Source of the DNA: Gammaproteobacteria bacterium
GTDB taxonomy: Bacteria; Pseudomonadota; Gammaproteobacteria; SZUA-152
Reading direction: 5' to 3'
Assembly: GCA_013152545.1 (NCBI GenBank)
Contig: JAADGF010000099.1
Coordinates: forward strand, 9,906-73,905
Length of the DNA: 64,000 nt
Part shown: positions 21,354 to 45,431 of the stretch, piece by piece
How the letters are laid out: each line of letters opens with the position of its first letter
Numbering within the stretch: the stretch's first letter is position 1
Translations under genes and position numbers: made by a program
Notes under the pieces: generated by a model
Database searches by the model: none
Told to the model about the DNA's origin: nothing
Seen by the model: only the letters and a program-made list of their open reading frames with translations

Positions 21354-21440
21354 TATACCCATAGCGTTTGGGGTTTAGGTGTAAAATGTGCGTCATATTC
21401 ATTTCATCGCGAGGCAAAACGAGACATCTCATAGGAATAA
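21354..21440. repeat. Partial copy (left half) of MITE family 1
   Basis: TATACCCATAGCGTTTGGGGTTTAGGTGTAAAATGTGCGTCATATTCATTTCAT... matches the left arm of the copies at 25085, 42665 and 44488. Confidence 0.6.
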
Positions 21441-21459
21441 TGCAAGCAAAACACAAGCG

Positions 21460-22191
21460 TTAATCTACCATTGCGATGAGAACCATCGTTTCTGTTAATT
21501 CAATCAAAGCACCAATGGTATCACCGGTTGCTCCATCAATGCGTTTTACCATAAGATGACGAATTACGATAAAACTGGCAATAAGCACAAAAATAACACC
21601 CCATGCAGCGTTGCCAAGTAACAGAAAAACCGTTAGCAAACTAATAATAATAGATAACATTGAAGCACCAACCGGCACATGTGCGGCTATTTGACACCCC
21701 AAACCACCTTTTCTTACATAAGGTGTTGTCATTAATAACAATGGTACAGTGGCGCGGGATAATAACGGTGGAACAAGCAGATAAAGAAGATGACCAGACT
21801 GCAATATAGCGACTAAGGCGGAAAATTTCAGTATTAGCGTCAACGTAAGGATAACGACCGCCGCAGGCCCACATCGCGGGTCTTTCATTATTTGCAGCGT
21901 TTTGCCCTTATCATTGAAACCACCCGCCCACGCATCTGCGCTATCGGCAAGACCATCTAGGTGCATTCCCCCGGTAAGCAAAACCCAAATTGCCAACAGC
22001 ACTGCCGCATGCAACATTTCTTGTTCGCCTGGCAATAGCCAGGCGAACAAGAACATTACAGAACCGATCATCAACCCCACAATGGGGTAAAATACAACAG
22101 AGTTAGCAACGGAGCGTTCAGAAGGTCTTTCTGGTAAAGAAATGGGAATACGAGTAAGAAATTGCAGCGCAATCAGAAAAGGCTGCATCAT
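21460..22191 (-). CDS. cobS: Adenosylcobinamide-GDP ribazoletransferase (cobalamin synthase CobS)
   Basis: Polytopic membrane protein with the CobS N-terminus MQPFLIALQFLTRIPI and the DGLADSADA motif. Confidence 0.85.
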   Translation of the reverse strand: MMQPFLIALQFLTRIPISLPERPSERSVANSVVFYPIVGLMIGSVMFLFAWLLPGEQEMLHAAVLLAIWVLLTGGMHLDGLADSADAWAGGFNDKGKTLQIMKDPRCGPAAVVILTLTLILKFSALVAILQSGHLLYLLVPPLLSRATVPLLLMTTPYVRKGGLGCQIAAHVPVGASMLSIIISLLTVFLLLGNAAWGVIFVLIASFIVIRHLMVKRIDGATGDTIGALIELTETMVLIAMVD

Positions 22192-22784
22192 ACCGCTTTA
22201 AATAGTTTACCATTACAACAGTTAATCGTTACTTTTTGAGTCTCTAAGTTGACAATGTGCAATGACGCATAGGGAACCGCCAGTTTTAGCAAGTTTTCAA
22301 CAGGTCGTTGCAATAGATGGCTAAGAATGATGCGAATGACTCCCCCGTGGGTAACTACTAATACATTTTTTTCTGCGCTGCTCGACGCGATCCGCTGCCA
22401 CGCAGACAAAACACGTGACTGGAAACAGGCAAGTGATTCACCGCCAGGTGGGGTATTTGTTAATGGTGCCCGCCAAAACAAAGAAAGCGCATCAGGATCT
22501 TTCGCATAAATATCGGCACTGGTCTGCCCCTCCCATTCACCAAAACAAATTTCCCGTAACGCGGTGTCAACATCCATTGCGAGCGCATGTTTTTTGGCAT
22601 AATGCCGAGCAAATTCAGTACACCGGGCCTTAGGAGATGTAATTACTTTGCACCATTGACTATCTGTAGCCATCGTTTGCCACATTTGCTCAGTACCGAT
22701 TTGGCTCAACACGGTGTCCATACTACCACGAAAACACTCAACGCCATTCACTTGCCCATGGCGCAACAAACCGACACGACTCAT
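22188..22784 (-). CDS. cobC: Alpha-ribazole phosphatase (CobC, histidine phosphatase family)
   Basis: LLRHGQ RHG motif; histidine phosphatase fold; position between cobT and cobS; 4-nt overlaps. Confidence 0.75.
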   Translation of the reverse strand: MSRVGLLRHGQVNGVECFRGSMDTVLSQIGTEQMWQTMATDSQWCKVITSPKARCTEFARHYAKKHALAMDVDTALREICFGEWEGQTSADIYAKDPDALSLFWRAPLTNTPPGGESLACFQSRVLSAWQRIASSSAEKNVLVVTHGGVIRIILSHLLQRPVENLLKLAVPYASLHIVNLETQKVTINCCNGKLFKAV

Positions 22785-23842
22785 TCTTTTGGCCCCGAAA
22801 CCGCCGCCTCTCCGAAAGTGGCCATACCATTATGTAAATGACAAGCAAGACGAATAAGCGGAACGGCGGTCGCAGCACCGCTCCCTTCACCGAGACGCAT
22901 AGCTAACGCCAACAGTGGTTGCACACCCATGGCATTGAGTACGATTTGATGCCCCGGTTCTACCGATGCATGTGAGAAAATAAACCAATCAAGAACATCC
23001 ACACACAGATTACTGGCGCAAAGTGCTGCAACCGATGTAATGTAACCATCAATCAGCACTGGCAATCCCGCTTTGGCACAGCTTATATAGCTCCCCGTGA
23101 GTGCCGCAATTTCATAGCCGCCGACACAACGCAATGCATCCAATGGTGAACGAATATTAGCGATATGTAAATCCAGCGCCTGTTGGATTATCTTGCTTTT
23201 ATGCAAAATGCCTGCGGAATCTAGCCCGGTTCCGGGACCCGCCAAGGACTCAGCTGGCAACCCCAAAAGCGCACACGCTAGCGCCGAGGCTGACGTGGTA
23301 TTGCCGATGCCCATTTCGCCAGCCACGAATAACTGAGCACCACCCTGTAACGCCCTCTGCACGGCCTGTCGTCCGGCTTGCAGTGAACGCCCAAGTTGCT
23401 GCTCGTCCATAGCAGCCTGTTGTGTAAAATTAGCCGTACCAGCACCAATACGTAAATTGAAAACCTGCGGTAAAGGCTCCAGATCAGTCACCGTTCCCAG
23501 GTTAATGATTTCCAAAGACGCCGCTAGCGCCTTGGCCAGAACATTAATGGCGGCCCCACCTCGTGCAAAATTACGTATCATTTCGACAGTTACCGCCTGA
23601 GGAAAAGCGGATACAGCTTCTGCCGCCACACCGTGGTCTGCCGCAAATATACTAATGTGTATTTTGTCTGCCGTCGGCTCTTCAGTGCCTTGCATAGCAG
23701 CAAGATGAACCGCAATTTCTTCGAGCCGCCCAAGAGACCCAGGTGGTTTAGTCAGTTTTTGTTGTCGCTCAATAGCCGCTTGTCGTGCAACTTCATTCAA
23801 AGGAGCAACAGATACCTGTAACCATTCACTAAGACTGTGCAC
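22781..23842 (-). CDS. cobT: Nicotinate-nucleotide--dimethylbenzimidazole phosphoribosyltransferase (CobT)
   Basis: CobT hallmarks PGSLGRLEE and GEMGIGNTTSASAL. Confidence 0.85.
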   Translation of the reverse strand: MHSLSEWLQVSVAPLNEVARQAAIERQQKLTKPPGSLGRLEEIAVHLAAMQGTEEPTADKIHISIFAADHGVAAEAVSAFPQAVTVEMIRNFARGGAAINVLAKALAASLEIINLGTVTDLEPLPQVFNLRIGAGTANFTQQAAMDEQQLGRSLQAGRQAVQRALQGGAQLFVAGEMGIGNTTSASALACALLGLPAESLAGPGTGLDSAGILHKSKIIQQALDLHIANIRSPLDALRCVGGYEIAALTGSYISCAKAGLPVLIDGYITSVAALCASNLCVDVLDWFIFSHASVEPGHQIVLNAMGVQPLLALAMRLGEGSGAATAVPLIRLACHLHNGMATFGEAAVSGPKE

Positions 23843-24189
23843 AACAATCTTCCCTTAACATGTAACTTATTATGAAGCTTATGTGATTTATAAAACTTAA
23901 TATTGCTGTAATAATTATTGTTGCAATAACCCTGTAACAGCTCAACATCATTTATGGAACCTAACAAGTAACGACTGAGGCTGCCTTATAATTCTATTGA
24001 AAATACACCTGCTTGAAAACATAAAAAATCGAGGCGAATTAAACGCTAAATCAAGCCTTTAATCAAGTGATTTTTTATTCTCTAATCGCTTGTGGAAATT
24101 TTCAATACCCGAGGCATTTAGGGTTTTGGCATCCTTACACGCTCAAATCATTCCAGGGCGACGGAAAAAGTTAGGAACGTGCATATTCC

Positions 24190-25062
24190 TTATAACTGCT
24201 TCACCGTATACCCTGATTTTTTTAACAATGCAATAATACCCTGTTCACCCACCATGTGTCCTGCGCCAATCACAACAAAATAGTTGTTTTTTGTATTCAA
24301 ATATTGCTTGATTTTTTTCACCATTTTAATATTCCGATCAGTAAATAACGCCTTAAAAAGTGGCTTAAACAAAGGGTTATCGTTTAGTGGCTCTTCCAGT
24401 ACGAGCTTATGCATTTTTGTCACATTGCCGGTTTTCCAAGCATCAATCAGTGTCGCCATAACACTTTCCGCCTCAGATAGCGATGTTAATGAATAACGTA
24501 AAAACAGGTCATCGTCAGTAATATTCAATAATAAATTTAATTGTTCTACACCACTTTCCAACTGTAAAATTGCTTTATTGTTGGCTTGCGCTTTATTTAT
24601 AAAATACCGGTCAATCCCACGCTCGGCTGAAAAACCCAATTGTGTCATTCGCGTAATAGTCAGTGTCAGTGCCGCCATCGTAGGCCGCATTTTAGCAATG
24701 GAAAAATATGCAAGCGAATATTTTTTTAGAAAAGCCTGAAGCAATGATCGCGTTTTTTTGTCCAAATTATCGTAGAGCGTCTCATCTCCTGAGTACACTC
24801 CTTTTGTTAGTAATATTTTTTGTATTTTAACTTGATTAGATTTTAATTCATTGACTTCCACCACCAACGTGTCTGCGATTTCAAATGCTTGTTCAATTGA
24901 AGAATTCAGAGGGTACATTGAGGCTTTAGCCATATGGATAGAGCCATATAAATAAATCACTGCCTTGCTATTTTTTACTTCCCACAAAAATGACTTCGCT
25001 TGCACTGAAATGCAACCAACAGTGAACAGCAGAATCGTAATACACGATATCAGTGACTTCAT
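24190..25062 (-). CDS. TraB/GumN family protein (secreted)
   Basis: Signal peptide; LWEVKN...VIYLYGSIH; C-terminal VVIGAGHMVGEQGIIALLKKSGYTV. Confidence 0.7.
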   Translation of the reverse strand: MKSLISCITILLFTVGCISVQAKSFLWEVKNSKAVIYLYGSIHMAKASMYPLNSSIEQAFEIADTLVVEVNELKSNQVKIQKILLTKGVYSGDETLYDNLDKKTRSLLQAFLKKYSLAYFSIAKMRPTMAALTLTITRMTQLGFSAERGIDRYFINKAQANNKAILQLESGVEQLNLLLNITDDDLFLRYSLTSLSEAESVMATLIDAWKTGNVTKMHKLVLEEPLNDNPLFKPLFKALFTDRNIKMVKKIKQYLNTKNNYFVVIGAGHMVGEQGIIALLKKSGYTVKQL

Positions 25063-25084
25063 GGTGCTATTATTCTTCCAAGTA

Positions 25085-25246
25085 ATATATCCATAGCGCT
25101 TGAGATTTAGGTGTTAAGTGTGCGTCCTTATTCATTTCATGGCAAGGCGAAATGACGAGTAATAGCGGGCTACTGCGAAGAGTTTCAACGCCTCCATGGA
25201 ATGAAGAGGGCGTGCAATGACACCTAAACCTTAATCGCCACGGACA
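25085..25246. mobile_element. MITE family 1, full copy (~160 bp) with terminal inverted repeats
   Basis: Left arm ATATATCCATAGCGCTTGAGATTTAGGTG; right arm CACCTAAACCTTAATCGCCACGGA, which is its inverse; internal similarity to the other copies. Confidence 0.7.
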
Positions 25247-25692
25247 TAATACTGTCATTACTTTAGCTTTAAACGGCTAGCTTTGGATTGCTTAAAAACA
25301 TGCTCGTAATCTCTCCTATATATCTTATAGGTATCACGAAAGTTCTGACACGAGAGTTTGAAAAGAATGCTGGGGTTTTATAGCAACATTTCTCCGTTAA
25401 CGCCAGAGGAAATCTCTCTCCTGGCCCCGCCAGGGCAATGTTTAATGACATAGAATTTGACGATAACCAATTGACAACAATAAAGAAAAACCACTTACTT
25501 GTGTTTTTTTGAAAAACAAGACAGTGTCGTACATTCACTCATTGCAAGTATGGAGTAGAAATCGAAGATAACTCATAAAGACAAAGCTAAACCATCAGGA
25601 AAATTATATCGAGCCATTCCTTATTCACCACAGAGCACTGACAATAAAGTATGTGGCGTAGTTATTCTGCCACCTCTGATTAGGCTAACAAA

Positions 25693-27792
25693 TCAATGGA
25701 CAGGCATCCGCCATGGTTTATTTTGTTTGTAAGTTTCAAGCCGCATTTGGAAAACTTTTAACCGTTCCGCCTGATCCGATGGCCTTAATTGTTTAATCGC
25801 TTTTAATTGTACTTTGATCGCTTTTTCAAACACGCCAATCTCAGCGTACCCTGCTGCTAGGGTATCCAGTAAACCAACTTCATTTTCACTGCTTTGCAAC
25901 AGTTTTTCAACAATGTGAATCGCTCTATTTCCATCACGAAGCTCCTTAATGGGAACAGTGGCCAAGCTCCAAGCTAAATTATTAAGTGCTTCTTTATAGC
26001 CCTGGTCAGACGCAATGGAAAACCACTTAATGGCCTGCTGGTAGTCCCGTTTTACACCTCGTCCCGTGGTATACAAATACCCAAGATTATCCGCAGATGG
26101 TGCATAACCATGATCAGCTGCTCTCTTGTACCATGTGGCGGCCAAGCTTTCATCACTGACAACGCCAGTGCCGTTTTCATACATCTGACCGAGATAATGT
26201 TGTGCCGCTGCCACTCCTTGCTCAGCCGATCTGCCAAGCCATTTTAATGCTTCCGCAATACTGAGATTAACGCCCTCACCAGTTTGATACAACAACCCCA
26301 AATAATATTGACTATAGGCATGATTGTTTTGTGCTGCACGTTGTAACCAATAACTGGCTTTTTCAATATCTTCTCTGATTTGTTGGTTAGCAATATACAT
26401 ACGGGCTACTTTATACTGTGATTCGGTATGGTTTAGTTGTGCTGCCTGTTCGAAGAAATGGAATGCCAATTGTGCATCTTCAGGTACGCCACGCCCCCCT
26501 TCATAAAGTTGGCCTAATATATAAAGAGCTGTTTTGTCACCAGAGTTTGCGGCACGGATCACCCACTGGGCGCCCAATGCCTCATTCTTTTTTACGCCGC
26601 TTCCATTCAGGTACAATATACCTAAACTGTACTGTGCCAAAGAAAAATTACGCTCGGCTGCTAATTGATACCAAGTGGCAGCGGCCGAATAATTTTGAGG
26701 CACACCGCGACCGAATTCATACATTAAGCCTAAAGCAGCTTGCGCGTCGGCAAGTCCTTGATTTGCCGCTAAGCGATACCAATCAAATGCTTTAGAATCA
26801 TCTGCCTTTACGCCACGGCCCGTCGCATAACTTTCGCCCAAATTATACTGGCCAATTGCATCACCTTGACGAGCGGCTTTTTCATACCAGCTTAGTGCTG
26901 TTTGCAAATTTTCCTCCACACCATAACCCCGCGCATACATAACACCAAGATTGGATTGCGCTGGAGCATAGTGATTCGCTGCTGCCCGGTTATACCAGGC
27001 GAGCGATTCTGAAAAATCTCTTTCTACAATTTTACCTTTTTGATAAATAACACCTAAGCTGTATTGAGCTTGTGGAAAATTTTGTTTTGCTGCCTGTTGA
27101 AACCAATATATCGACAGCTCGCTGTTTTGTTCTATAGCACCACCATTAAGATAATATTCTGCCACAATTGTTTGTGCTGCGGGGAATCCAGATGAAGCTG
27201 CTTTCAGAAACCAACTGAAAGCTTCTTTTTCATCCAAAGGAACACCGCGCCCATTCGCATATTTAATACCCATTTGAAATTGGGCATTGGGTAAACCTTG
27301 ATTCGCTGCCTTTTTCGTCCAATAAGCGGACTCTTCCTGGTCTTGCGGCAAGGCGATACCAGTGGAATAAATGATACCCAGATTATTCTGCGCCTCCGCA
27401 TAATCGTATTTTGCCGCTTGCCGATACCAACGAATAGCTTTGATAATGTCTTTATCGACTCCCTGTCCCATCTCATACATGTGTGCAATATTAAACTGGG
27501 CTATCACGTTACCATTGCTTGCTAACGGTAACCATAGCTTATAGGCAGTCTCATAGTCGCTAATATCATAGGCTTCCAACGCCCCATTGTAGATCGCAAT
27601 GTCATGGTCATAAAAAGGCAGCGTTCTCAGCTTTGGTGATTCACCCGTTTGCGAAACAGGTGGCACCGTGGATTGTGAAATAAAGTTATTTTGCTGTGGG
27701 ATATTCGAAGCACAACCTAAACTAACAACAACAGGAATGACGGCTACCCACTTTGAAACACTTCGTATTTTAGCAATATGAGTAAAAAGCAT
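25693..27792 (-). CDS. Sel1-repeat (TPR-like) protein, secreted/possible lipoprotein, about 17 Sel1 repeats
   Basis: Repeated AQxNLGxMYxxGxGVxxDxxxAxxWYxKAAxQG units. N-terminal hydrophobic segment ending VVSLGCAS. Confidence 0.75.
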   Translation of the reverse strand: MLFTHIAKIRSVSKWVAVIPVVVSLGCASNIPQQNNFISQSTVPPVSQTGESPKLRTLPFYDHDIAIYNGALEAYDISDYETAYKLWLPLASNGNVIAQFNIAHMYEMGQGVDKDIIKAIRWYRQAAKYDYAEAQNNLGIIYSTGIALPQDQEESAYWTKKAANQGLPNAQFQMGIKYANGRGVPLDEKEAFSWFLKAASSGFPAAQTIVAEYYLNGGAIEQNSELSIYWFQQAAKQNFPQAQYSLGVIYQKGKIVERDFSESLAWYNRAAANHYAPAQSNLGVMYARGYGVEENLQTALSWYEKAARQGDAIGQYNLGESYATGRGVKADDSKAFDWYRLAANQGLADAQAALGLMYEFGRGVPQNYSAAATWYQLAAERNFSLAQYSLGILYLNGSGVKKNEALGAQWVIRAANSGDKTALYILGQLYEGGRGVPEDAQLAFHFFEQAAQLNHTESQYKVARMYIANQQIREDIEKASYWLQRAAQNNHAYSQYYLGLLYQTGEGVNLSIAEALKWLGRSAEQGVAAAQHYLGQMYENGTGVVSDESLAATWYKRAADHGYAPSADNLGYLYTTGRGVKRDYQQAIKWFSIASDQGYKEALNNLAWSLATVPIKELRDGNRAIHIVEKLLQSSENEVGLLDTLAAGYAEIGVFEKAIKVQLKAIKQLRPSDQAERLKVFQMRLETYKQNKPWRMPVH

Positions 27793-28311
27793 AGTTACAA
27801 CCAAAACAGTAATAGTAAATGACGATGTATTTTTAAATGTAGAATTTTACTGTATCACAAAAAGCTGACTAATAAATAGCTAGTTCAATAACTTTATTAA
27901 ACTCATAAGTTATTGTTTTTTGTAGCAGATATATAAGTTCGCGACATAAAATTTGTTTTTTATACTATTTTGTGGAGTTTACTATTGCAGAACGAATGTA
28001 CTTCGTTTTATCCTAGGGTAATGGCGTAATAGAGTCTGCCATTCGCCTTCCGTTTTTTATGTCATTTCAAATAAACCCTAGTACTTTAATTACGCCGTAA
28101 AAATCACGCGATTTCTGGCACACAATGAAACCAAGGTAGGGGGTGCAACTGACCCAACAACGTAACATCGTTTATTACCCAATGGTTTTTAACATGTAAC
28201 ATTTAGCGCTAACAAGACACTGATAACTGACAACTTGTTTCGCGCCTCAAGCATTGGGCATTACGCCGTGCTTTAAACCCAGTTAATAGAACTCATTAAA
28301 GGATGTTACTT

Positions 28312-29457: not shown

Positions 29458-29640
29458 CACGAAGGAATTATAGTTTTAGGTTTTAAGTATATTTACCCCG
29501 TTAAATGTCCAACGGAGCATTTACTTCATACCCATTTCGCCGCTAAATAATCTGCACGACCCTACAAGACTCTGGGTTGCGTAATAACCTGTTACATAAC
29601 ACGTGAGTTATATAACAATAAAAACTTGAACCGGGTCGGC

Positions 29641-29671
29641 GTGAAGTACGGTTTACATAACCGTACTTCAC
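29641..29671. terminator. 11-bp-stem hairpin (GTGAAGTACGG-tttacataa-CCGTACTTCAC) between convergent genes; possible bidirectional terminator
   Basis: Perfect inverted repeat. On the minus strand a T-run follows only after about 17 nt, so it is not canonical. Confidence 0.3.
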
Positions 29672-29710
29672 TGGATAAACACGACCCAACTAACCAGGTA
29701 AGAAGCGGCA

Positions 29711-33410: not shown

Positions 33411-33442
33411 ATATACCCATAGCGTTTGAGATTTAGGTATAT
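33411..33442. repeat. Solo/minimal copy of MITE family 1 (the two terminal repeats abutting)
   Basis: ATATACCCATAGCGTTTGAGATTTAGGTATAT, 5 bp downstream of the HDOD gene stop. Confidence 0.65.
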
Positions 33443-33448
33443 ACTCCT

Positions 33449-35466: not shown

Positions 35467-35500
35467 TACTATACCCGTGACGTTTGAATGAAGGACCTTG
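35467..35500. repeat. Degenerate fragment related to the MITE family 1 terminal repeat
   Basis: TATACCCGTGACGTTTGAATGAAGG, compare TATACCCGTGGCGTTTAGGATTTAGG at 45401. Confidence 0.3.
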
Positions 35501-35652
35501 GGATTGTTGTGCCGTTAAAGTACACCAATATAACGTACCTCGCGGATTTTAGTCAAAGTTAAGTCGCGCCCGGCTCATCGTTCGCGGCTCTGTTGACTCG
35601 TATCAACTCTGTTGCCCCCACTGTTATTGATGTTTAAGAAGCGTGCACATTC

Positions 35653-38600
35653 TTAAGCGACAGCGCCACCTTTATCGTCAGAAACTGATTGTTCCATTAT
35701 TTCCGACACTTCGATGTGTGCCACACGTAAAGCAGACAATTGTGTATCAATATTATTAATGTTTTTTGACTTTATGTTTGACTCAATTTTTTCCGCAATA
35801 TCACCTAAATACAATGCACCAAATTGCCTGCAAGATGACTTGAGTGAATGCATCGCTCTTTCGATAGCCTCAATGTTTTGATTTTCATAAGCTTCCTCAG
35901 CAATGTTAATATTATTATTTGCTGTACGATATTGTTGAGATATAACAGCTTGAAATTTAGCACCAAACAATGATTTCAATGTATTGAAAATGGCGATATC
36001 TAATACCGGTAATGCTTCATTGTTGTTACTGGTATTGTTGCTGACATTTTTACTAGCATTGTTGCTGTGATCGTTATTGTTATTATTGTCGTTGCCAAAG
36101 TCATTGTTTCCGTATCGACGCTGATCTGAACCCACAGGTGCATCGGCCGATTTTCGTGGCAACGCTTTCCGTGGCAACCATGCCGCCAACACTTTCTCTA
36201 ATGCTTCCTGACTCACTGGTTTTGAAATATAGTCGTCCATACCCGCTGCCAAACATTTTTCTTTATCACCTTGCATTGCATTTGCAGTAAAGGCGATAAT
36301 TGGAACTCGATCAACATTGTGGTTTTCAAGTTCGTATTTTCGTATTGCGAGTGTTGCTTCAAAACCATCCATTTCCGGCATTTGACAATCCATAAAGACC
36401 AAATCAAACGGTCGTTTTTTTACCATTATCAAGGCTTCCAAGCCATTACCGGCAGGCGTGATATTGCAACCATATCCTTCCAGATATTCTGTCGCTACTC
36501 GTTGGTTAACCGGATTATCTTCTGTCAATAAAATTTGTGCGTTAGTAAACAAAATGCTTTCACGTATGCTTGCATTAGTTTCTCGTAAGGTGTGGCGTGA
36601 GACCAATGGAATTTTATGGCCTTGTTGTTTTGCGCTCCAAATAAGCGAAAGCACATGAGGAGCCTCGGTCGGGCGAGTAGGTTTAGTAAGATAACCATCA
36701 AAACCCAGTTGCGTTAACCGTTGGCTATCACCTTTACGTGGCGATGATGTAATCAGCAGTAACACACCGTCTTTTAACAACCCTCGTTGGTTAATCTCAG
36801 CTGCCAACATTTCACCATCCATTTCCGGCATATGAGAATCTGTGATGACAATATCAAAAGGCACCTGATCTGAAATAGCCTGAGTCAGCATTTTAATTGC
36901 TTGCGTTGCAGATGCAGCAGTCTCTGTACGTAATGACAGGTGAGATAACTGTTCAGTCAATATTGTTCTCGCCACATCCAGGTCATCTACAAGCAAAGTT
37001 CTCAAACCATTAAGATGATCAAAATTTTCAACTTGAGCAGGCAAGATAACGCCCAAATTTGCAAGCTTTAACTGCATGGTAAAACTAAAAATTGAACCTT
37101 TTCCTTTAACACTTTCCACACTGATTTCACCCTGCATTAATTCACAAAGTTGTTTGGAAATCGCCAAGCCCAAACCAGTGCCACCATACTTTCGGGTAGT
37201 CGAACCATCTTCTTGATCAAATTTATTAAATATTCTATCCAGTGTTTCTTTGGCAATGCCAATACCAGAGTCTTCAACTTTTACCAACAAGGTTACATGC
37301 TCACTGCTAACATCCTGTGATTCAATGGTGAGCAAAACACTGCCTTGTGCAGTAAATTTAATAGCATTGCTCAGAAGATTTAACAGGATCTGACGAATCC
37401 GTCCCGGATCCCCCATAAAGAAACAAGGCGTAGCAGGTTTATAACGCAACAGTATCTCAACACATTTGTCCCTGCACTTAATCGCCATCATTTCTGCAAC
37501 GTCTTCACTTAACGCTTGCAAGTTAAATAACACGCTTTCCAGCTTCAGTTTGCCTGCTTCAATCTTAGAGAAGTCGAGTATATCGTTAATGATGGTCAAC
37601 AAAGCATCGGCAGACTTCATACTGGTTTCTGCGTACTCACGTTGTACAGGACTAAGATCAGTATCAAGTAATAGCCCCGTCATACCGATTACGCCATTCA
37701 TCGGCGTACGAATTTCATGACTCATGTTGGCCAGAAAATCGGACTTTAGTCGCGTTGCTTCTTCAGCCGCCTCTTTTGCCTCTACAAGGGCTGCTTCAGC
37801 TTGTTTTTGCTTGGTAATATCACGAAAACTCCACACCGTACCGACTGCTTTTCCTGCTACCATCATCGGTCGGGACAAACGCTCATAAACCCGGCCATCA
37901 ATCAATTCCAATGTATCAAAAACTTCAGTCTCAGCATTGGCATGCCAATTTTCGAGCACATCGATAAATTGTTGTGGGTCCACTAACTGCCCCATGATAT
38001 GGGCAACCATCGCTTTTTCATCACCGCGCTTCATCATATCATCAGGAATACTCCACAATTCTGTAAAACGGCTGTTGGTTTGTATCGTTTTACCCTGTAC
38101 ATTGGTAACAAGAATACCATTGTCGGTAGACTCCAGGGTCGCTTCCAGTTGCGTCATTGCTTGTTGGGTTGTAAGCTCAGCAAGTTTGCGCTCACTGATA
38201 TCAGTCCGAATGGCAATATAATTTTTGGGTTTCCCATCATCCCCCATAAAGGGTACGATGGTCGTATCCACCCAGTAGAGATGCCCGTCTTTGGCTTTGT
38301 TGCAAATTTCGTCGTGCCAGACATGTCCTGCAGCAATGCGGCGATACATCTGGCGAAAAAAATCCCTGTCATGGCATCCTGAATTAAGCAGGCGATGATT
38401 TTCCCCCATCAATTTTTCACGGCTATAACCACTGATTTCACAAAATTTATCATTGCAAAAAGTGATATTACCCTCCACATCGGTAATAGCAACAATAGCG
38501 TGTTGATCCAAGGCAAATTTTTGCTCGGCTAAATCGGCAAGTGCTTGTTGTGCTTTTTTACTGGATTGTTCCAGAGCCTGCTCATGCCTTTGCGACATTC

Positions 38601-39825
38601 TCAGCATATGGTTAAAGGCTTCCGCCAATTGCCCAATTTCATTGGTGGCAATGACATCAACCCACTGTCCCCTTTCGCCTGCAGCAACTGCCATACTGGC
38701 ATCAACGAGGCTTGCAATAGGCTTGGTAATACGCCGTGCCTGAAAAATGGCTAACAGCACCACAATAATAATTGTGAAGCAGACTAACACCAACGTCACT
38801 TTAGCTAAATCGGTGACTTCAGTCAGCGCCTCATCTTCATTGATTTCACTGATCAATACCCACTTAACGCCCGACAATTGTAGCGTATGATGAATACCAA
38901 TCACTTGATTTCCATTAGGCCCCCGGTAGAAGAAAGCCGCCTGCTCCTGATCGTTAGATGCTTTGTCGTGACTACCATGTTTGGTATACCAATGCCAGTA
39001 CTGTTCCGTATCGATTTCACGGTTCAATACATCATCTTGCCTGTCATTAATTGCGGTACGCAGCCTACCGTCATTGCCCACTAAATAATGGATTAATGAA
39101 CTGCTGGTATTTATCCCTTGATTTAATGATTTAGGAATACGGTCAAAGCGAATCTGGATGGCAAAAACACCCAACTTTCCGCCGAACTCATCCAATAACG
39201 GCGCCGTGAGAAACCCGGTTATCATATTACCAGAAGGCGCATAACGTTCCAGGTCGGAAAACATTGACTGCCCCGTTGCCAGAGTTACTTTAACACTCTG
39301 TGCAAACCGTGTATTCGCATAAGGACCATCTAGCAAGTTAGTCCCCAAATCAGACTCACGGGCAACGCTGAACAAAATATTGCCGTCGTTGTCGATCAGA
39401 ATCAAATCATAGGTGTAATCATAGCGACGACTCAGATTGATAAGATCATTTTGAGTACCATCAACTAACGATGCCCAGGTGTAACTCTTCACAAATGTGT
39501 CCAGCGTTTTATTACTGGACTGCCAGGCTCGCTGCAATGACATTAGGAAACGAGCATTATTCTGCGACTCAGCCTGCCTACTAAGATCCATAAAGCGATA
39601 ATGGAAAAAAGTATTGATGAATTGCACATTCAAGGATGCAGATTGCTGCAATTTATCTTCCGCTGACTGAGTGAGGCTGGCCGTACCCGTTTGATAACTT
39701 ACCCAGGATACAATCATCAACGGCAATAACGATAACAATAAAAACCACAACACCAGATGACGACGGAGGGACGCGTATTTTTTCGCGACAGGAGCATCAC
39801 CGTTTGCGGCTATATCTACTTTCAT
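35653..39825 (-). CDS. Hybrid sensor histidine kinase/response regulator: periplasmic double-Cache-like domain, TM, HAMP, 2 PAS, HisKA/HATPase, 2 REC, Asn-rich linker, C-terminal Hpt
   Basis: H-box [14 protein letters not shown] and G2 box [12 protein letters not shown]. Two receiver domains (DDLDVAR...DSHMPEMDG and EDNPVNQ...DCQMPEMDG). Hpt [12 protein letters not shown]. Low-complexity [30 protein letters not shown]. Confidence 0.85.
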
Positions 39826-39849
39826 AGCATGAGTGCTATATCACTTGCG

Positions 39850-40986
39850 CTATTCACGACCAAAGCGTGTATCTGAAAAGTTATCGATATCCACTGGCCG
39901 TTTCAGAATACCACCTTCCACCGCCAAGTCCATGATTTGCTTTAACCCCGCTTTATCGACATCCAAATATTGATAATTAATCACGCGTAGTTCTGGGCTA
40001 AGACTGGCAATAATGGCCTCATAAGTATGCGCTGGTATATGTTTACGCACGATCCTGACGATGGCATCCAGCTTTTCACCACCTGCGCTTCTAGCTTGTT
40101 CAATATCCTCGCCAGCCTTATGAATGTAAGCCATCACTTCCTTAACTGCATCAAACTTACCGGCGATAGCTTTATCGGTCGCCAGTGCAATGCATTCTAC
40201 GTGGCCATGCTGCCAAGGCATAACATCTTTGGAATACCAGGCCACATGACCAAAACCACTCGTCTCCACCACATCGGCCCAGGGTAACGATTGCTCAAAA
40301 GCAGCAGGTAACGCACGATTGCTTTTACTTTTAAGAAAGGCTGGGGATTTAGGCGGAGGCACACCAATCACCAATACCTCGGCATCGGCGTTGGGCGTGA
40401 GACTCAACCGCAAACCTTGTTCTTTAAGATAGCGATATAACACGACAGTATGAGTGGCCAATAAATGGGGCATGCCAATTTCGGTTGAACGACTGTTTTG
40501 TTGATAAATTTTTTTCAATGCAACAGCTACTTTAGCGTCAGGTTTGCGGCCTTTTCGCCCCGGTGGTAACTTTACCTCTTTGTTTAACAAATCGTTAATG
40601 GCCAGAGCATTACCGTCTCGGTGCATCAACCCCACCCAACGAAAATGGGGTTTTTCATTAAACATATCCATGGCCAAGGGGCTCATTACATAGGCCATAT
40701 CAACGTCACCAGACTGAAAATAGGCTCTTAATAAATCCCAGTTCTTCATCTGTTCAATCTGAAAATCAGCTTGTTTCATTTTATGACGGTACTTTTCATA
40801 AGCGACCAAGGCAGCATAATGATCAGCTAGGGGAATATAAAGCGCTTTAATGGTTTGTTTGCCAGACCTCGCGAGAATTGCCGCATCGCTATAACCCCAA
40901 AAAAAAGTCAATAACAGCACCAGTATCAGCCAAGGTAACGGACGAAACGGTTTTATTCCTACAATAACATCGGTTTGTTTTTTCAT
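39850..40986 (-). CDS. Membrane-anchored periplasmic solute-binding-protein-like protein (NMT1/TauA/PhnD-like type 2 PBP fold), probable ligand-binding partner of the downstream hybrid kinase
   Basis: N-terminal TM or signal anchor PLPWLILVLLLTFFWGY; PBP-like length and composition; 24 nt upstream of the kinase start; no ABC permease or ATPase nearby. Confidence 0.55.
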   Translation of the reverse strand: MKKQTDVIVGIKPFRPLPWLILVLLLTFFWGYSDAAILARSGKQTIKALYIPLADHYAALVAYEKYRHKMKQADFQIEQMKNWDLLRAYFQSGDVDMAYVMSPLAMDMFNEKPHFRWVGLMHRDGNALAINDLLNKEVKLPPGRKGRKPDAKVAVALKKIYQQNSRSTEIGMPHLLATHTVVLYRYLKEQGLRLSLTPNADAEVLVIGVPPPKSPAFLKSKSNRALPAAFEQSLPWADVVETSGFGHVAWYSKDVMPWQHGHVECIALATDKAIAGKFDAVKEVMAYIHKAGEDIEQARSAGGEKLDAIVRIVRKHIPAHTYEAIIASLSPELRVINYQYLDVDKAGLKQIMDLAVEGGILKRPVDIDNFSDTRFGRE

Positions 40987-41752
40987 ATTTCGGCTATCTG
41001 CAGGAATCCATTATAGGTCTTGGGTACACAGCGATAATTGTTAATCTACACTGATAATGTTATAAATTTTTTTACTTTCATGGTGTTAAATACCATTTGT
41101 ATTTTAAGTTTAGGTGCTGATTACATACCTTTTCCGTTCCATGTACTGCGTTAAACCGTATTTTTGCGCATCACAAGCGACTGACAACGCCACAGGACTG
41201 AAAAAGCAACCCCCTCCCCCTGCATTAACATCGGTGCCGAATTGCTTTACTTAAGTTAAATCCATATATCAATTGATATCGACGACAAACACCTAATACA
41301 CTATAAATACAAGATTTTTTCGAATATTTTCAATCTTCCGAAAGAACCTGTTGTTAGTAGATGGAGGCGAAGAAAAAGATAGGATGCGGAACGAGTAACG
41401 CAGATTCAAGTATTTCAACAATGTGGGATATCGACACCCCGCCAGTAATGGAAAGTAGCTTTGCTCGGCAACGGCATAGCTCGTCGTATCAAAGGCAAGC
41501 CATGCAATTTCGCACCACTTGTCGATAATTTTAGCTAAATATGTAGCCTCTTTTGACGACAATATGATGTAATAACACAGTCACGTTGTACCATGTGCTC
41601 TGCAAAGTAGCCTATATGCTAAAAAATACGATGTAACCTATTGTTATTTAAACACTATCAGACTAAATTTATTTTCATCGGCATTAATTGCTTATTATAC
41701 AAGCACGTCATTGGCAGTTGAGCAGCAAAATTAGTTAAGGTTTCAGCTTGTA

Positions 41753-42676
41753 ATGGAAAACCAAACCCCGCTTTTTTTTGTTATAGCAGCGATAATCGTA
41801 TTGTGGCTATTGGGCAAAATTCTCGCAAAGGCGTCAGCATCGCTGGCGGAATCTACGCCCCCTTCCCGCAAAGCCGAACCAAAAGGAAATGAAATCGCCC
41901 CGGGCTTACATGTCATCGGACTCAGCGATACACTCATGCAGGAAATGCATGAAATTATCGAGCAACAAAACACGATAAAATTGGCTTATTTTTTTACAAA
42001 ACGTTGTCCGGAATTCCCAGAACTCGACAATTATTTCTCTGAATTAAGGTCACAATATTTTGTATTGCTGGGCAAACCGTCCAACGAGGCATCCGAAACC
42101 GAAAAGATCGATGCCATGAAAAAATTAGACTTCCAAAACACACCGCAATATCTTGACATCAATGTTGTTACCCAAACTGAATTAAAATACCTGATTGAAG
42201 ATACCGTAAAAACATTTCGGGTTATCACTGATGAGCTAATTTGCAAATTCGGTGGTGAAAATTTCTTCGACAATTTCCGGGCCTACACCCAACTCGGTGA
42301 AGAAAAACCAATAACGTTGCATATCCCACCAGATCACCAGCACCGAAAGAAACTTGAATCACTGGTCGAAACCGGCATTGCCATCAGAGGCAGAAAAATT
42401 CCTTTAAAAGACCGTCTTGGAGTCCTTAAATTCAGTCAGTTGCGCCGCATTGCAACCGAGTTAAAAATAGACACCCCGTTTAAACAAAAATCGGAAGCCA
42501 CCGAAGCATTGGCAGCAATGCCAGGGTCCGCTGTCCATTTGGCAATGATCCATGACATTAGCGATATTTTTTACTTAAAACCAGAAACCTATAATGCACA
42601 AGCAGTAGAAGACGAATGGGCTTTTTTTAACGCTTACGCCAGACTACTGACGGAAGCGTTAAAAATATACCCATAG
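41753..42676 (+). CDS. Hypothetical membrane-anchored protein; 3' end and stop codon lie inside a MITE
   Basis: N-terminal TM LFFVIAAIIVLWLLGKIL. No recognised domains. The last codons ...LKIYP-TAG are encoded by the MITE left terminal repeat. Confidence 0.5.
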   Translation: MENQTPLFFVIAAIIVLWLLGKILAKASASLAESTPPSRKAEPKGNEIAPGLHVIGLSDTLMQEMHEIIEQQNTIKLAYFFTKRCPEFPELDNYFSELRSQYFVLLGKPSNEASETEKIDAMKKLDFQNTPQYLDINVVTQTELKYLIEDTVKTFRVITDELICKFGGENFFDNFRAYTQLGEEKPITLHIPPDHQHRKKLESLVETGIAIRGRKIPLKDRLGVLKFSQLRRIATELKIDTPFKQKSEATEALAAMPGSAVHLAMIHDISDIFYLKPETYNAQAVEDEWAFFNAYARLLTEALKIYP

Positions 42677-42852
42677 CATTTGAGGTTTCGATGTAAAGTG
42701 TGCGTCCTATTTTATTCATAGCAGCAAAGGTAGGCGCTTTTAGGCAAGGCGAAATGACGCGTAATAGTCGTTCTATTGCAAGGAATTTCAACGCCGCGAT
42801 GAATGAAATAGGGTGTGCAATTTACCCGAAATATTAAACGCTTTGGGTATAG
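42665..42852. mobile_element. MITE family 1, full copy (~188 bp)
   Basis: ATATACCCATAGCATTTGAGGTTT...CGCTTTGGGTATA terminal inverted repeats. The interior is shared with the copies at 25085 and 44488. Confidence 0.75.
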
Positions 42853-42939
42853 ATACGTAAAGACGCGAAAACAGCTATTAATCGCTTTCGGGGCATTTCA
42901 TCAAGATCATACCCGTTTGTTTCACCTGTTACCGCTTAA

Positions 42940-43209
42940 TTAAAGTTCACGATCGTGGTTGTTTTTAAATGAGTAACCGCATTTAGTCAGCACAGGCTTT
43001 ATCTGAGACTCGGTCCTGGGGAATTTTCGACAGTTTGGTGGCCTAAATTTATATGCCGAACAATAACTTTCACCATCAAGCTTAACCTTGAGAAACATAC
43101 ATTTAAAGGGTAACTTACAACATTCACCACAATTGTTACAGCTGCCGGTTCTATGCTTTTCCACTGGTAAAATAGAAGTAACAATTCTCGCTAGTTTTTC
43201 AATCATCAT
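42940..43209 (-). CDS. YkgJ-family cysteine-cluster (putative zinc/iron-chelating) protein
   Basis: CNNCGECCK...C...C...PPNC pattern, typical of PF03692. Confidence 0.6.
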   Translation of the reverse strand: MMIEKLARIVTSILPVEKHRTGSCNNCGECCKLPFKCMFLKVKLDGESYCSAYKFRPPNCRKFPRTESQIKPVLTKCGYSFKNNHDREL

Positions 43210-43947
43210 TAAAGTACTCGGGCTATTCCAGTTTCAATAGCAACATTAGTTATGCATTGCAACTAAAACCGATGTTCTATTCTATGCATACTACTGTTAT
43301 GCACACTTAGAACATGTACGCAATAACTCCCACATTTTGCATCTCGGCTTCTGTTCCAGACTCGCCCCTACCTCCCTCATCCTTGACTTGGACTCGTCAT
43401 CTTCAGCCCGTCTTCGCCTGCGGCGCCTACGAACTAAACCTGAGTGCCAAATAAAAAAGTGATTACACGCACGTTCTTATTTCATTAAAAAAGTAAGGTT
43501 ACAATCTGTTAATAATACCTAAGCATTATATTATCAGTTGAAAATAAATGCTTTGCAAACATTTAACATCCTTAATTAGTGTTGGGTTTTACACATAGAA
43601 ATTTAGGAAAAATACACCATGTCTAAACGAATAACGCAAAAACCACTGTAAAGAAATAACCTATGGGTTAAACCTACGCTCAACGGAAATTAAGCAGTGA
43701 ACAACATGGTGAGGCTTTAAACCTTTTCAAGATAAAAAACTATATTCTTAGCTATTTTAACGCACCTTAATACAGACAAAATATAACAACAATAATTTTA
43801 TATTACTCAATAGTATTTCGTGAAATCCTAAACCATCGCGGTTATTATACGAAACATAAAATAACGTAATAAACTGCAAGGTTATCATTTCCGAGCCCTG
43901 CATATTTCAGACACTCGTATCAAAATCCGTATCAAGAGAGTATTACA

Positions 43948-44499
43948 GTGACAAAAAACAACAACCAACAATTGCTGCATGAATCGCATACCAACAGCAA
44001 TCTTAAATTCCCCCTATGTTTGCTTCTGGATGATTTTGAAAACCCATTAAATGTCGGAAGTATATTTCGCATTAGTGATGCACTAGGAGTAACAGAACTT
44101 TATTTATGCGGCAGCACACCAGTCCCACCTAATAAAAAAATCACCAAAACATCCCGGTCAACTGAAAAGTCAATGACCTACCATTATGTCAAAAGTGCGG
44201 AACAAACCCTAACTCAACTAAAAGCAGATCATTACACCATAATTGCACTCGAAATCACCACACAAAGTCTGGACCTTGTTACCCTAAAGTATTCAAATTA
44301 TGAAAAAATTTGTCTCATTGCTGGATCAGAGAAACAAGGAATAAAACCGTCGTTGCTAAGGCTCTCAAATAACAGTATTCACATTCCAATGCTAGGTATT
44401 AATTCATCAATGAACGTAGCTACGGCATGTGCAATCGCTGTTTTCGAAATAACAAGAGGCTATAAAAAAAAGAATATAAATGCTAACGATACCCGCTGA
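43948..44499 (+). CDS. SpoU/TrmH-family RNA 2'-O-methyltransferase; stop codon supplied by a MITE
   Basis: SpoU motifs LDDFENPLNVGSIFRISDALGV, IAGSEKQGI and IPMLGINSSMNVATACAIAVFE. The TGA stop lies within the MITE left repeat GATACCCGCTGAG. Confidence 0.75.
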   Translation: MTKNNNQQLLHESHTNSNLKFPLCLLLDDFENPLNVGSIFRISDALGVTELYLCGSTPVPPNKKITKTSRSTEKSMTYHYVKSAEQTLTQLKADHYTIIALEITTQSLDLVTLKYSNYEKICLIAGSEKQGIKPSLLRLSNNSIHIPMLGINSSMNVATACAIAVFEITRGYKKKNINANDTR

Positions 44500-44690
44500 G
44501 ATTTAAGTGCTCAGTGTACGTCATATTCCTTTCATGGTATCACCAAAAGTAGGCGCTTTTAGGCGAAAGTAGCTTCTTTAAGCAAAGCGAAATGACGAAT
44601 GAGCCACTCTCTATTGTGAGGAATTTTAACACCGCCATGGAATAAAGAGAGCGTACAATGAATGCCGAAACCTTAAATGCTATGGGTATA
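44488..44690. mobile_element. MITE family 1, full copy (~203 bp)
   Basis: GATACCCGCTGAGATTTAAGTG...CCTTAAATGCTATGGGTATA inverted termini. Confidence 0.75.
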
Positions 44691-44900
44691 GTGTCGTGTA
44701 TTGAATAGAACGAAGATTCAGTTTATTGCTACGCACTTGTTGCCAAGCCTCCTTGTCGAAGCACAGCAATGCCATGATATCGGATTTGGAAAGCACCTGC
44801 GGGAAAAACCATCTGTGTGTTGTGCGCTTTCTCGGTCTAGGCTCACTATACCTTCGAACACGCGTCTAACAGGGAAATGATAACGCTCCGTCCTATTCCA

Positions 44901-45356
44901 TTATTGACATTTTCCAGTACATTTAATAACGAGTTGAGCACAGCTGACGTTTTCGAAATCATCACTGATCGCAGGTACACTCGCATACCCACTATGCACC
45001 ATCCAAGCGTTATTACATTGTTTGTGGGAACTGACATAAGACGGTTGTGAAATCCAGGAAACATTGGTGCACGCAGGCTGCCCCACACCAAACCGAGCAG
45101 CGATCTCATATGTCCCGCACATTAACCATCCATGCTTCACCTCTGCCTCAAGCCCCATATCGCCATTTTGGCGCAACCATATACTGGCATTATCAAATTT
45201 AAATTCCAGCTTTTGAGGCAAACCACCTGAGCCCCAGTTTATAGTATTACTTGGAATGGCACTGTAGCGTTTCATAACAACCTTTTCATTAGCTGAATCC
45301 GCCAAAACAACGGTGGATACAAATATAATAAATAATAGCAATACGATATATTTCAC
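44901..45356 (-). CDS. Small secreted Cys-containing hypothetical protein
   Basis: GTG start (AGGGAG RBS 10 nt upstream) gives MKYIVLLLFIIFVSTVVLA-DSANE. The track start at 45440 is a TTG inside the solo MITE. Confidence 0.45.
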   Translation of the reverse strand: MKYIVLLLFIIFVSTVVLADSANEKVVMKRYSAIPSNTINWGSGGLPQKLEFKFDNASIWLRQNGDMGLEAEVKHGWLMCGTYEIAARFGVGQPACTNVSWISQPSYVSSHKQCNNAWMVHSGYASVPAISDDFENVSCAQLVIKCTGKCQ

Positions 45357-45397
45357 TTTCAATTTTCTCCCTGCAATGCTTATTAACCCTTTGTAAC

Positions 45398-45431
45398 ATA
45401 TATACCCGTGGCGTTTAGGATTTAGGTATAT
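45398..45431. repeat. Solo/minimal copy of MITE family 1
   Basis: ATATATACCCGTGGCGTTTAGGATTTAGGTATAT. Confidence 0.6.

Follow-up and report, generated by a model that had tools for sequence, protein, structure and literature searches.

Repeats in a gammaproteobacterial contig are very probably decayed copies of a MITE family paired with an IS630-family insertion sequence

The repeats interspersed in the DNA analyzed here, a 64,000-nt stretch of contig JAADGF010000099.1 from a Gammaproteobacteria bacterium (the window), are very probably decayed copies of a non-coding MITE that is paired with an insertion sequence (IS) of the IS630 family. The family is previously undescribed, and its kind is well known and ordinary. 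An earlier note on this DNA had proposed a family of MITE-like elements that end in inverted repeats, with no transposase gene in the window, and this proposal is supported by a cognate IS, by duplication of a TA target and by more than 100 copies.

Results

The window copies were verified by direct reading of the sequence, with a repeat finder and by profile searches, which together confirmed 8 loci of one interspersed family, all within 21.3-45.4 kb (Table 1). Three are full copies, two are halves and two are solo ends, and the eighth is a weak fragment. A search of the remaining 40 kb of the window with the profile of the terminal arm gave 0 family loci. With at most one mismatch, the 12-mer TATACCCATAGC occurs 6 times in the window against an expectation of 0.26, a count that none of 100 shuffled sequences reached. 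The internal blocks reported as common to the full copies are real and were recovered as repeat-finder families D5-D7. The half copy at 24105-24169 was absent from the list in the earlier note and is newly found here. Judged by sequence on its own, the fragment at 35470-35487 is a marginal member of the family. Two loci that had been taken for minimal copies with both terminal repeats proved to be something else, each consisting of one 27-nt end followed by ATA; the junction AGGT/ATA of the first of these, at 33412-33441, is also present in loci L024 and L040.

Table 1. Loci of the repeat family in the window. Identity is to the 28-nt end of the IS.
Position	Strand	Feature	Search result	Identity to IS end	Neighboring genes
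21354..21426	+	Truncated copy: left end and left part of inner stem, profile positions 2-73	nhmmer E=3.8e-16	26/28	ORF 21017-21334 (+); cobS 21460-22191 (-)
24105..24169	-	Partial copy, right half only, profile positions 104-162	nhmmer E=1.8e-5; arm profile E=0.042	18/28	Directly downstream of TraB/GumN-family gene 24190-25062 (-)
25086..25248	+	Full copy, 163 nt including flanking TA on both sides	nhmmer E=1.3e-42	21/28 (right end, worn)	TraB/GumN-family gene and ORF 25269-25538, both (-)
33412..33441	+	Solo end: 27 nt of terminal repeat, then ATA	arm profile E=1.3e-9	27/28	
35470..35487	+	Degenerate end fragment TATACCCGTGACGTTTGA	arm profile E=0.031	16/28	
42666..42851	+	Full copy, 186 nt, 23-nt insert CAGCAAAGGTAGGCGCTTTTAGG in left inner stem	nhmmer E=2e-40		ORF 41753-42676
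44482..44690	+	Full copy, 209 nt, tandemly duplicated insert, degenerate left end	nhmmer E=9.8e-33		SpoU-type methylase gene 43948-44499
45401..45430	+	Solo end TATACCCGTGGCGTTTAGGATTTAGGTA, then TA	arm profile E=7.8e-7	23/28	

The copies had been described as sitting mostly at gene boundaries, and indeed each of the 8 loci is either located between ORFs or reaches into one by no more than its first or last codons. The ORF upstream of the 186-nt copy takes its last three codons and its TAG stop from the first bases of that copy. The TGA stop of the SpoU-type methylase gene falls within the worn left end of the 209-nt copy, and the methylase is 183 aa long, compared with 174-176 aa in its closest homologues. 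No tRNAs were found in the window by tRNA scan, and the window copies showed neither terminator-like sites nor an enrichment of promoter-like sites.

A full copy is a long imperfect hairpin between 28-nt terminal inverted repeats, TATACCCATAGCGTTTGRGATTTAGGT and its complement, giving an element of about 160 nt that reads TACCC...GGGTA. Every full copy folded as a single long hairpin, and the outer helix was 94% paired across 27 copies. For the copy at 25086-25248 the predicted energy was -73.1 kcal/mol on the plus strand and -61.3 on the minus strand, and for that at 42666-42851 the values were -72.6 and -57.3 kcal/mol, respectively. Lengths were uniform, with 67 of 79 metagenome copies measuring 160-169 nt, and the one ATG-led frame that was read across the three window copies was shifted by small indels between them; by these measures the element is small and non-coding. 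A small peptide encoded by the ATG-led frame of the central module was considered and rejected, as the frame was not kept between copies and was absent in Pseudoalteromonas. Variant ends, TATACTCG...CGAGTATA, were seen in L019 and L172, and in MAG MT5bin.1 the same ends enclosed a different interior. An apparent nested insertion in L030 was unrelated sequence without a duplication.

Target-site duplication, which the earlier note had left to be looked for, was found by comparing a filled with an empty site. The filled site (L127) reads ...ACTATC-TA-[TACCC...GGGTA]-TA-GACAC... and the empty site (L039) reads ...ACTATT-TA-GATAC..., with flanks that are ~93% identical; in this one contig pair the two differ by exactly the element plus one TA. 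Flanking TA dinucleotides were present on both sides of 90 of 102 copies. The next base outward was A or C on the left in 91% and T or G on the right in 90%, and the two sides were uncorrelated, suggesting that these bases belong to the target and not to the element. The flanking bases thus point to (A/C)-TA-(T/G) as the target. One copy was flanked by AA...AA, a direct repeat. All members of the IS630-Tc1-mariner group recognize and duplicate TA (PMC8533490), and bacterial MITEs typically have terminal inverted repeats, terminal TA, target-site duplications and long stem-loop transcripts (PMC2229807).

That the window lacks a transposase gene was confirmed by a Pfam scan of all ORFs of at least 150 aa, less a few of the shorter of these that overlap longer ORFs on the opposite strand, and of some smaller ones in 21-47 kb. 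A cognate IS, which the earlier note had suggested searching for, is present in related genomes and metagenomes: it belongs to the IS630 family and has the same 28-nt ends. In two loci with different flanks, L102 and L065, the exact end TATACCCATAGCGTTTGAGATTTAGGTG adjoins the 3' end of a transposase gene, and this gene has its stop codon within the end. An IS630 probe protein was used only to locate these two loci, and the transposase is identified by its domains and homologues. The transposase has DDE_3 (2.8e-36) and HTH_33 (4.1e-12) domains, 35 residues separate its second D from its E as counted in the translation, and its homologues, of ~344 aa, are annotated as IS630 family transposases. 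Complete, TA-flanked copies of the IS were found at L171 (349-1482) and L172 (10-1149), with both ends matching the arm profile at E values of 1e-8 to 1e-4. In all, ISs of 1134-1140 bp (~1.13 kb) with matching ends were identified in L102, L065, L170, L171 and L172 and none in the window, and L171 comes from the same MAG (JAKISS..., D96SM.bin.23) as the MITE locus L016.

The ends in the window are identical to the IS end at 16-27 of 28 positions. Only these ~28-nt ends are common to IS and MITE, and the MITE interior is unrelated to the IS, indicating that the MITE did not arise simply by internal deletion of this IS. A parent IS was also sought as inward-facing pairs of ends 0.4-6 kb apart, and only pairs of complete MITEs were recovered.

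We searched 596 Gb of sequence for an exact 23-nt end pattern, for which ~0.5 chance matches were expected by calculation. The pattern occurred at 39 loci in 15 species genomes of uncultured marine Gammaproteobacteria, and in more than 120 metagenome contigs among the matches listed, which is a lower bound; viral contigs gave 0 matches. Profile searches identified 29 full copies in the window and 43 loci taken together, and 79 more in 120 metagenome loci. The collection comprised 104 unique full copies, mostly of 160-169 nt, together with many partial copies in different contexts; the counts span related genomes and metagenomes, and for the source genome they cover the window. Only 1 of the 104 lies inside a long ORF, almost all being intergenic. 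Rather than being few in number and syntenic in relatives, as an ancient intergenic motif would be, the copies number more than 100 and occupy non-homologous sites in many species. A literature search with the end sequence returned only unrelated PCR primers.

Copies from different species were 80-89% identical, and the copy at 25086-25248 matched full-length copies of other species at 80-85%. Coding DNA in common with the window was 66-78% identical, and the one homologous gene common to two MITE-bearing MAG loci was 72% identical; by these identities, copies are conserved between species above the coding-DNA background. In a search for synteny through the SpoU-type gene, the closest relatives were only 68-70% identical and not syntenic with the window. 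L040 and L041 have the region in common with the window, with intergenic DNA so diverged that no clean empty site could be made out. The present family spans at least 15 species-level genomes, in contrast to most bacterial MITE clusters, which are confined to one genus (PMC11602168 for the contrast).

Within the window, the copies are mutually 64-83% identical and the longest exact run in common is 17 nt. They are too diverged to bear out the suggestion that the region is recombinogenic, and they are old insertions with worn ends that may no longer be mobile. At one orthologous site, related contigs had a full copy in one case and a 32-nt solo end in others, demonstrating that solo ends can arise by deletion. 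The solo ends at 33412-33441 and 45401-45430 are single ends and not two-ended minimal elements, and are interpreted as remnants of deletion.

The two arms of the hairpin have changed together. Both sides differed in 18 of 35 pairs, compared with 7.4 ± 1.9 in shuffles (0 of 500 reached the observed value), and 94.5% of cells were paired. In 27 of 29 copies the model strand gave the more stable fold (mean -78.8 kcal/mol, against -63.0 for its complement). Non-Watson-Crick pairs of the inner stem were G·T 108 times and A·C 19 times, and four consensus pairs were G·T, a bias missing from the outer ends (56 versus 50). Together with the position of several window copies at gene 3' ends, these features would suit a structured RNA or single-stranded DNA element under selection for its hairpin, as proposed for ERIC of enterobacteria, that would act in mRNA stability or processing and would not be, or not only be, mobile. 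We regard this as distinctly unlikely. Orientation was random relative to neighboring genes (14 sense and 14 antisense to co-directional neighbors, with 9 convergent and 10 divergent pairs), Rfam gave 0 matches in the window at the gathering score, and at E<=1 the one match overlapping a copy among the three loci searched was to a plant microRNA hairpin model, far below its threshold. The lack of terminator-like or enriched promoter-like sites at the window copies also argues against it, the co-variation could in part be inheritance within subfamilies, and mobility, TA duplication and the cognate IS were observed directly. Structured RNA fails as the sole explanation; as an extra layer on a MITE it may apply. 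It is conceivable, if rather doubtful, that the hairpin interior is a functional single-stranded module (RNA or a one-strand DNA hairpin) carried and exchanged by MITEs, a reading drawn from the compensatory stem changes, from G·T being ~6 times as frequent as A·C on one fixed strand and from the central ~54-nt part, which is shared with a Pseudoalteromonas MITE of entirely different ends, while MAG MT5bin.1 conversely has the same ends around another interior. A small RNA would be one possibility, should the model strand be transcribed from inside the element; it might, for example, dampen the transposase or be a substrate of a double-strand RNase.

Two further origins share features with the element. 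Strand-asymmetric tolerance of G·T would suit the single-stranded intermediate of a REP/REPIN-type repeat, moved by a RAYT (an IS200/IS605-like tyrosine transposase) that acts on single-stranded hairpins, and the hairpin shape and frequent solo "singlet" ends fit as well. Such an origin is nevertheless extremely improbable, for each unit is one A+T-rich hairpin of 160 nt, with ends of 28 nt, and not a doublet of short G+C-rich palindromes, and the 28-nt end is A+T-rich and by eye has no obvious self-complementarity. The ten ORFs adjoining solo ends were housekeeping or toxin-antitoxin genes with no transposases; a RAYT (Y1 transposase) was found neither among them nor among the scanned window ORFs. 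The ends are an exact match to those of an IS630-type IS, and insertion duplicates a TA target; HUH/Y1 elements are not known to make such a duplication. Descent from the enterobacterial ERIC/IRU family, with ours as a marine-diverged member, is very unlikely in spite of some resemblance: an E. coli ERIC copy ends TATACTC...GAGTATA, the same 7 nt as the variant ends in L019 and L172, and each is an imperfect palindrome that ends in TA and has variants with internal insertions (PMC2229807). Blastn of the consensus against 5,426 E. coli genomes gave 0 matches at a cutoff as loose as E=10, its global alignment to an ERIC copy was no better than shuffles (z=1.3), and the profile gave 0 matches at the ERIC locus.

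Discussion

Our preferred explanation is an IS630-type MITE. Its ~28-bp terminal inverted repeats would be the putative binding sites of a DDE transposase of the IS630/Tc1/mariner type, supplied from elsewhere by the 1.13-kb IS with the same ends. We infer that this transposase moves the MITE and does so by cut-and-paste: it would excise the element and paste it into TA, preferably (A/C)TA(T/G), leaving TA duplicated on both sides. The source genome presumably has, or once had, such an IS. The MITE interior, a long imperfect hairpin, does not come from the IS. The window copies would be old intergenic insertions in an ordinary chromosomal region that later decayed by point mutation, small insertions and internal deletions into halves and solo ends, with two of them now supplying the last codons and stop codon of upstream genes. 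The strand-specific G·T bias of the inner stem is not accounted for by plain double-stranded cut-and-paste.

Nezha of cyanobacteria is a MITE paired with an IS630-family element and is grouped with RUP of Streptococcus pneumoniae as the closest known system. RUP, which is mobilized by IS630-Spn1, is likewise small and non-coding, has terminal inverted repeats that match an IS630-family IS with the transposase acting in trans, and inserts at TA, with TA at both ends and many dispersed intergenic copies (PMC2229807 for RUP). The present family has no sequence relationship to RUP or Nezha and differs from them in its hosts, uncultured marine Gammaproteobacteria, in its longer ends (28 nt) and in its ~100-nt near-perfect hairpin interior unrelated to the IS.

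ERIC/IRU/RU-1 of enterobacteria is also an imperfect palindrome, of 127 nt compared with 160 nt here. Both families have terminal TATAC(C/T)C...G(G/A)GTATA, lie in intergenic DNA, occur as internal insertion/deletion variants and are able to provide genes with C-terminal and stop codons (PMC2229807; PMC2759123). Similarity is undetectable past the 7 terminal nucleotides, and the effect of ERIC on mRNA is orientation-dependent while the present family has no orientation bias. A matching IS, moreover, was found for the present family; a review of such repeats proposes a transposase only for RUP and describes their transposase-driven movement as being without experimental support (PMC2229807). 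Correia/NEMIS elements of Neisseria resemble the present family in their ~25-nt inverted ends starting TATA and duplication of a TA target, in forming long hairpins when transcribed and in having size classes distinguished by an internal segment (PMC2229807; PMC10969869). Their sequence is unrelated. They also contain promoter and IHF motifs and are RNase III substrates, and nothing of this kind was detected here.

An undescribed MITE of Pseudoalteromonas/Catenovulum chromids has a central ~54-nt hairpin module in common with the present family (profile positions 56-109, 82-84% identity, blastn E=7e-5 against 7.3 Gb). It is a ~205-nt palindromic multi-copy repeat found in up to 18 places per chromid, with a filled/empty site at TA (C-TA[...]TA-G versus ...CATAG...), and its ends (TAACCTGARTTCTGG...) are completely different from ours. 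No IS with those ends was found in a 50-kb stretch, nor a close transposase homologue in Pseudoalteromonas.

For annotation, a single MITE family, with its partner IS named, can now be assigned to the eight window repeats and to hundreds in related MAGs. It accounts for the many contigs of these organisms that end at its sequence and for the element-derived C-termini of two window genes. Neither the strand-asymmetric inner stem nor the module shared with the Pseudoalteromonas MITE changes the overall picture of an ordinary mobile element. The family adds a clean IS630-MITE pair from uncultured marine Gammaproteobacteria, and, unusually for bacterial MITEs, it is spread across many species (PMC11602168).

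Repeat copies in the window

The window contains 6 occurrences of the 12-mer TATACCCATAGC with at most one mismatch, where 0.26 would be expected, and none of 100 shuffled sequences reached 6. This count agrees with sequence reading, a repeat finder and profile searches, which together established eight loci and confirm the repeat family claimed in the earlier note. All eight fell within 21.3-45.4 kb (21354-45430), and the profile search found no copy in the remaining 40 kb. The packing could be due to local hopping, to chance, or to intergenic spacers that are more numerous or longer in these 24 kb. The context is ordinary chromosomal DNA, with cobalamin genes, a catalase, a hybrid histidine kinase, a SpoU-type methylase, an amidase, RecJ, an ABC exporter and helicases. 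As had been claimed, no transposase gene was found among the window ORFs scanned.

Coordinates of MITE copies in the window and of related elements elsewhere
Feature	Location	Coordinates	Remarks
Full MITE copy	window	25086-25248	right end badly worn
Full MITE copy	window	42666-42851	
Full MITE copy	window	44482-44690	left end badly worn
Left half of MITE	window	21354-21426	
Right half of MITE	window	24105-24169	minus strand; absent from the earlier note's list
~30-nt MITE forms	window	33412-33441 and 45401-45430	
Weak MITE fragment	window	35470-35487	
Complete partner IS	L171	349-1482	1134 bp
Complete partner IS	L172	10-1149	1140 bp
Partner IS	L170		cut by contig end
Pseudoalteromonas repeat	L044	2905-3110	Pseudoalteromonas sp. 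Bsw20308 chromid NZ_CP013139.1; also L047-L049

Pairwise identity among the window copies was 64-83%, and their ends matched that of the partner insertion sequence (IS), a ~1.13-kb IS630-family element, at 16-27 of 28 positions. Together with the two badly worn ends, these values mark the window copies as old. RecA-dependent recombination has a length threshold of homology for which the longest exact run that the copies have in common, 17 nt, is too short. The copies would therefore be poor substrates for homologous recombination, and the description of the region as recombinogenic is not supported.

Structure of the full copy

Every full copy folds as a single long imperfect hairpin. The 28-nt inverted repeat TATACCCATAGCGTTTGRGATTTAGGT forms its outer part, followed inward by the inner stem and the apical module ...GGCGAAATGACGCGTAATAGTCRTTCTATTGCAAGGAATTTCAACGCC... 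A 23-nt insert is present in two window copies and is duplicated in one of them. Across 27 copies, taken both from the window and from elsewhere, pairing was kept in 94.5% of cells over 35 predicted pairs, and 18 of the 35 pairs had changed on both sides, compared with 7.4 ± 1.9 in shuffles (0/500 reached 18). In slid controls pairing collapsed to 29-42%.

In several copies, short extra hairpin-like inserts lie at differing interior points (L009 6778-6967, L025 3158-3339; window 42719-42745 and 44538-44580), for example GTACTCACAGGGATGTGAGGTATTAG and TGCCCTCTGGGGCACACG; the insert (A)AAGGTAGGCGCTTTTAGGC recurs across several genomes.

Departures from Watson-Crick pairing in the inner stem were mostly G·T (108, versus 19 A·C), and four consensus pairs are themselves G·T. 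In 27 of 29 copies the model strand, in the orientation fixed for the profile, accordingly gave a better fold than the complementary strand. At the outer ends G·T and A·C numbered 56 and 50. The inner-stem bias points to constraint on one single strand; subfamily founder effects may contribute. Even so, orientation relative to neighbouring genes was random, with 14 copies in sense, 14 in antisense, 9 between convergent and 10 between divergent genes, and no promoter or terminator signal stood out.

The central ~54 nt also occur in a ~205-nt multi-copy palindromic repeat of Pseudoalteromonas and Catenovulum chromids, apparently undescribed before, whose ends (TAACCTGARTTCTGG) are unrelated to those of the MITE. 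Records held 1-18 matching places, some of them only partial. It too has a filled and an empty site at TA, occupied in strains Bsw20308 and HL-AS1 and empty in HL-AS2; no IS matching its ends was found in a 50-kb stretch searched. Conversely, MT5bin.1 carries the MITE ends around a different interior. From these two cases, modules seem to have been exchanged between MITE families. A function of the MITE interior is possible.

Spread among marine Gammaproteobacteria

By our own arithmetic, an exact 23-nt end pattern would be expected by chance ~0.5 times in 596 Gb, both strands included. We found it in 15 species-representative MAGs (39 loci), each from an uncultured marine gammaproteobacterium, and in at least 120 metagenome contigs, with no match in viral contigs. 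Among the MAG and metagenome loci listed, profile searches gave 104 unique full copies and many halves and solo ends; full-copy lengths peaked sharply at 160-169 nt, and only one of the 104 lay within a long ORF. Many of the metagenome contigs among the matches listed stop ~100 nt or less from a copy, as expected of a repeat that breaks assemblies.

Against the window copy at 25086, copies from other species showed 80-89% identity, while the few homologous coding stretches in common with the window were 66-78% identical, and one gene common to two MITE-bearing MAG loci was 72% identical. Different MAGs have central-region subfamilies in common, and single MAGs contain several. The earlier note had considered an ancient intergenic motif, syntenic in relatives and about as numerous as in the window; the more than 100 copies, at non-homologous sites in many species, speak against it.

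Insertion site and mobility

A filled and an empty site were identified in flanks ~93% identical. Metagenome locus L127 reads ...ACTATC-TA-[TACCC...GGGTA]-TA-GACAC... and L039, in MAG S013_42, reads ...ACTATT-TA-GATAC..., which puts the element proper at 160 nt and shows a duplicated TA, answering the earlier note's question about target-site duplications. TA lay on both flanks of 90 of 102 copies. One base further out, A or C stood on the left in 91% and T or G stood on the right in 90%, indicating a preferred target (A/C)TA(T/G); because left and right bases were uncorrelated, they belong to the target sequence and not to the element. One copy is flanked by AA on both sides, a direct and not an inverted repeat.

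At an orthologous site, a full copy in L097 corresponds to its first 32 nt alone in L099 and L103, with the breakpoint at a short direct repeat. Deletion within a full copy can thus leave a solo end behind. The two ~30-nt window forms, previously taken to comprise both terminal repeats, are single ends, with a junction AGGT|ATA that recurs in L024 and L040; they are best read as deletion remnants too.

The partner insertion sequence

A cognate IS with matching terminal repeats, which the earlier note had proposed to seek, was found outside the window. A tblastn search with an IS630 transposase probe, used only as a pointer, led to L102 and L065. These two loci, with differing flanks, carry the exact end TATACCCATAGCGTTTGAGATTTAGGTG, at which an ORF of the opposite strand terminates; its TAA stop lies within the IS end. 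The protein has DDE_3 (2.8e-36) and HTH_33 domains, and homologues of ~344 aa bear the name IS630 family transposase. In the complete partner-IS copies (see table) both ends matched the arm profile (E 1e-8 to 1e-4) and were flanked by TA. L171 lies in MAG D96SM.bin.23, also home of MITE locus L016; the variant end TATACTCGTAGCG of L172 is nearly identical to TATACTCGTGGCG on MITE copies of L019. IS and MITE are alike in the ends only.

In L170 (1-2230; JGI 3300005096, Ga0072503_114618) the IS adjoins a Cas3-type helicase/nuclease gene with Cas3_HD, DEAD and Cas3-like C-terminal domains, probably by coincidence. L019, from MAG SZUA-152, has three MITE copies; at 3013-3148 (minus strand) it also matches the model RF00029, the catalytic domain of group II introns, at 35.8 bits, just short of the gathering score of 40.

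Neighbouring genes

The last three codons and stop of ORF 41753-42676 come from the MITE copy at 42666. The copy at 44482 contains, in its worn end, the stop of the SpoU-type gene, whose protein is 7-9 aa longer than the closest homologues.

Block 42940-43266 (minus strand) has counterparts in two distant relatives (L041 6803-7123, L040 6890-7359); at 78-80% DNA identity to the window it is better conserved than the flanking genes. It looked non-coding at first and codes for a small Cys-rich protein (...HRTGSCNNCGECCKLPFKC...CSAYKFRPPNCRKFPRTESQI...) with no Pfam match at E<=0.001. A MITE copy lies within 100-430 nt of it in the window and L040, not in L041. The largest families of direct repeats reported by the repeat finder (D1, D3; period ~174 nt) lie inside 13388-16246 (minus strand), the gene of a 952-aa PKD-domain protein; they reflect its tandem domains and are unrelated to the MITE.

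Relation to known families

Identity with ERIC was rejected: blastn, profile and alignment comparisons gave no similarity, and only 7 terminal nt, TATAC(T/C)C, agree between the MITE and a copy of ERIC from E. coli. The hairpin fold of the unit and the ten ORFs adjoining solo ends led us to reject REP/REPIN as well. No Rfam family was matched, and a literature search for the end sequence returned no paper with it in a MITE context.

In the IS630-Tc1-mariner group, TA is both the sequence recognised and the one duplicated (PMC8533490). There are precedents for a MITE paired with an IS630 element, such as RUP, likewise a small element, with IS630-Spn1 (PMC2229807). The present MITE has ends identical to those of an IS630-type element, duplicates TA and is polymorphic for insertion. 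The IS transposase would bind the 28-bp ends via its helix-turn-helix domain and would move the MITE by cut-and-paste into TA. In every respect that could be tested, the element works like a bacterial MITE dependent on an IS630-family transposase. The family is a fresh member of the IS630-dependent MITEs, a kind already described, and its value is modest, lying mainly in annotation and in offering a clean IS630-MITE pair in uncultured marine bacteria.
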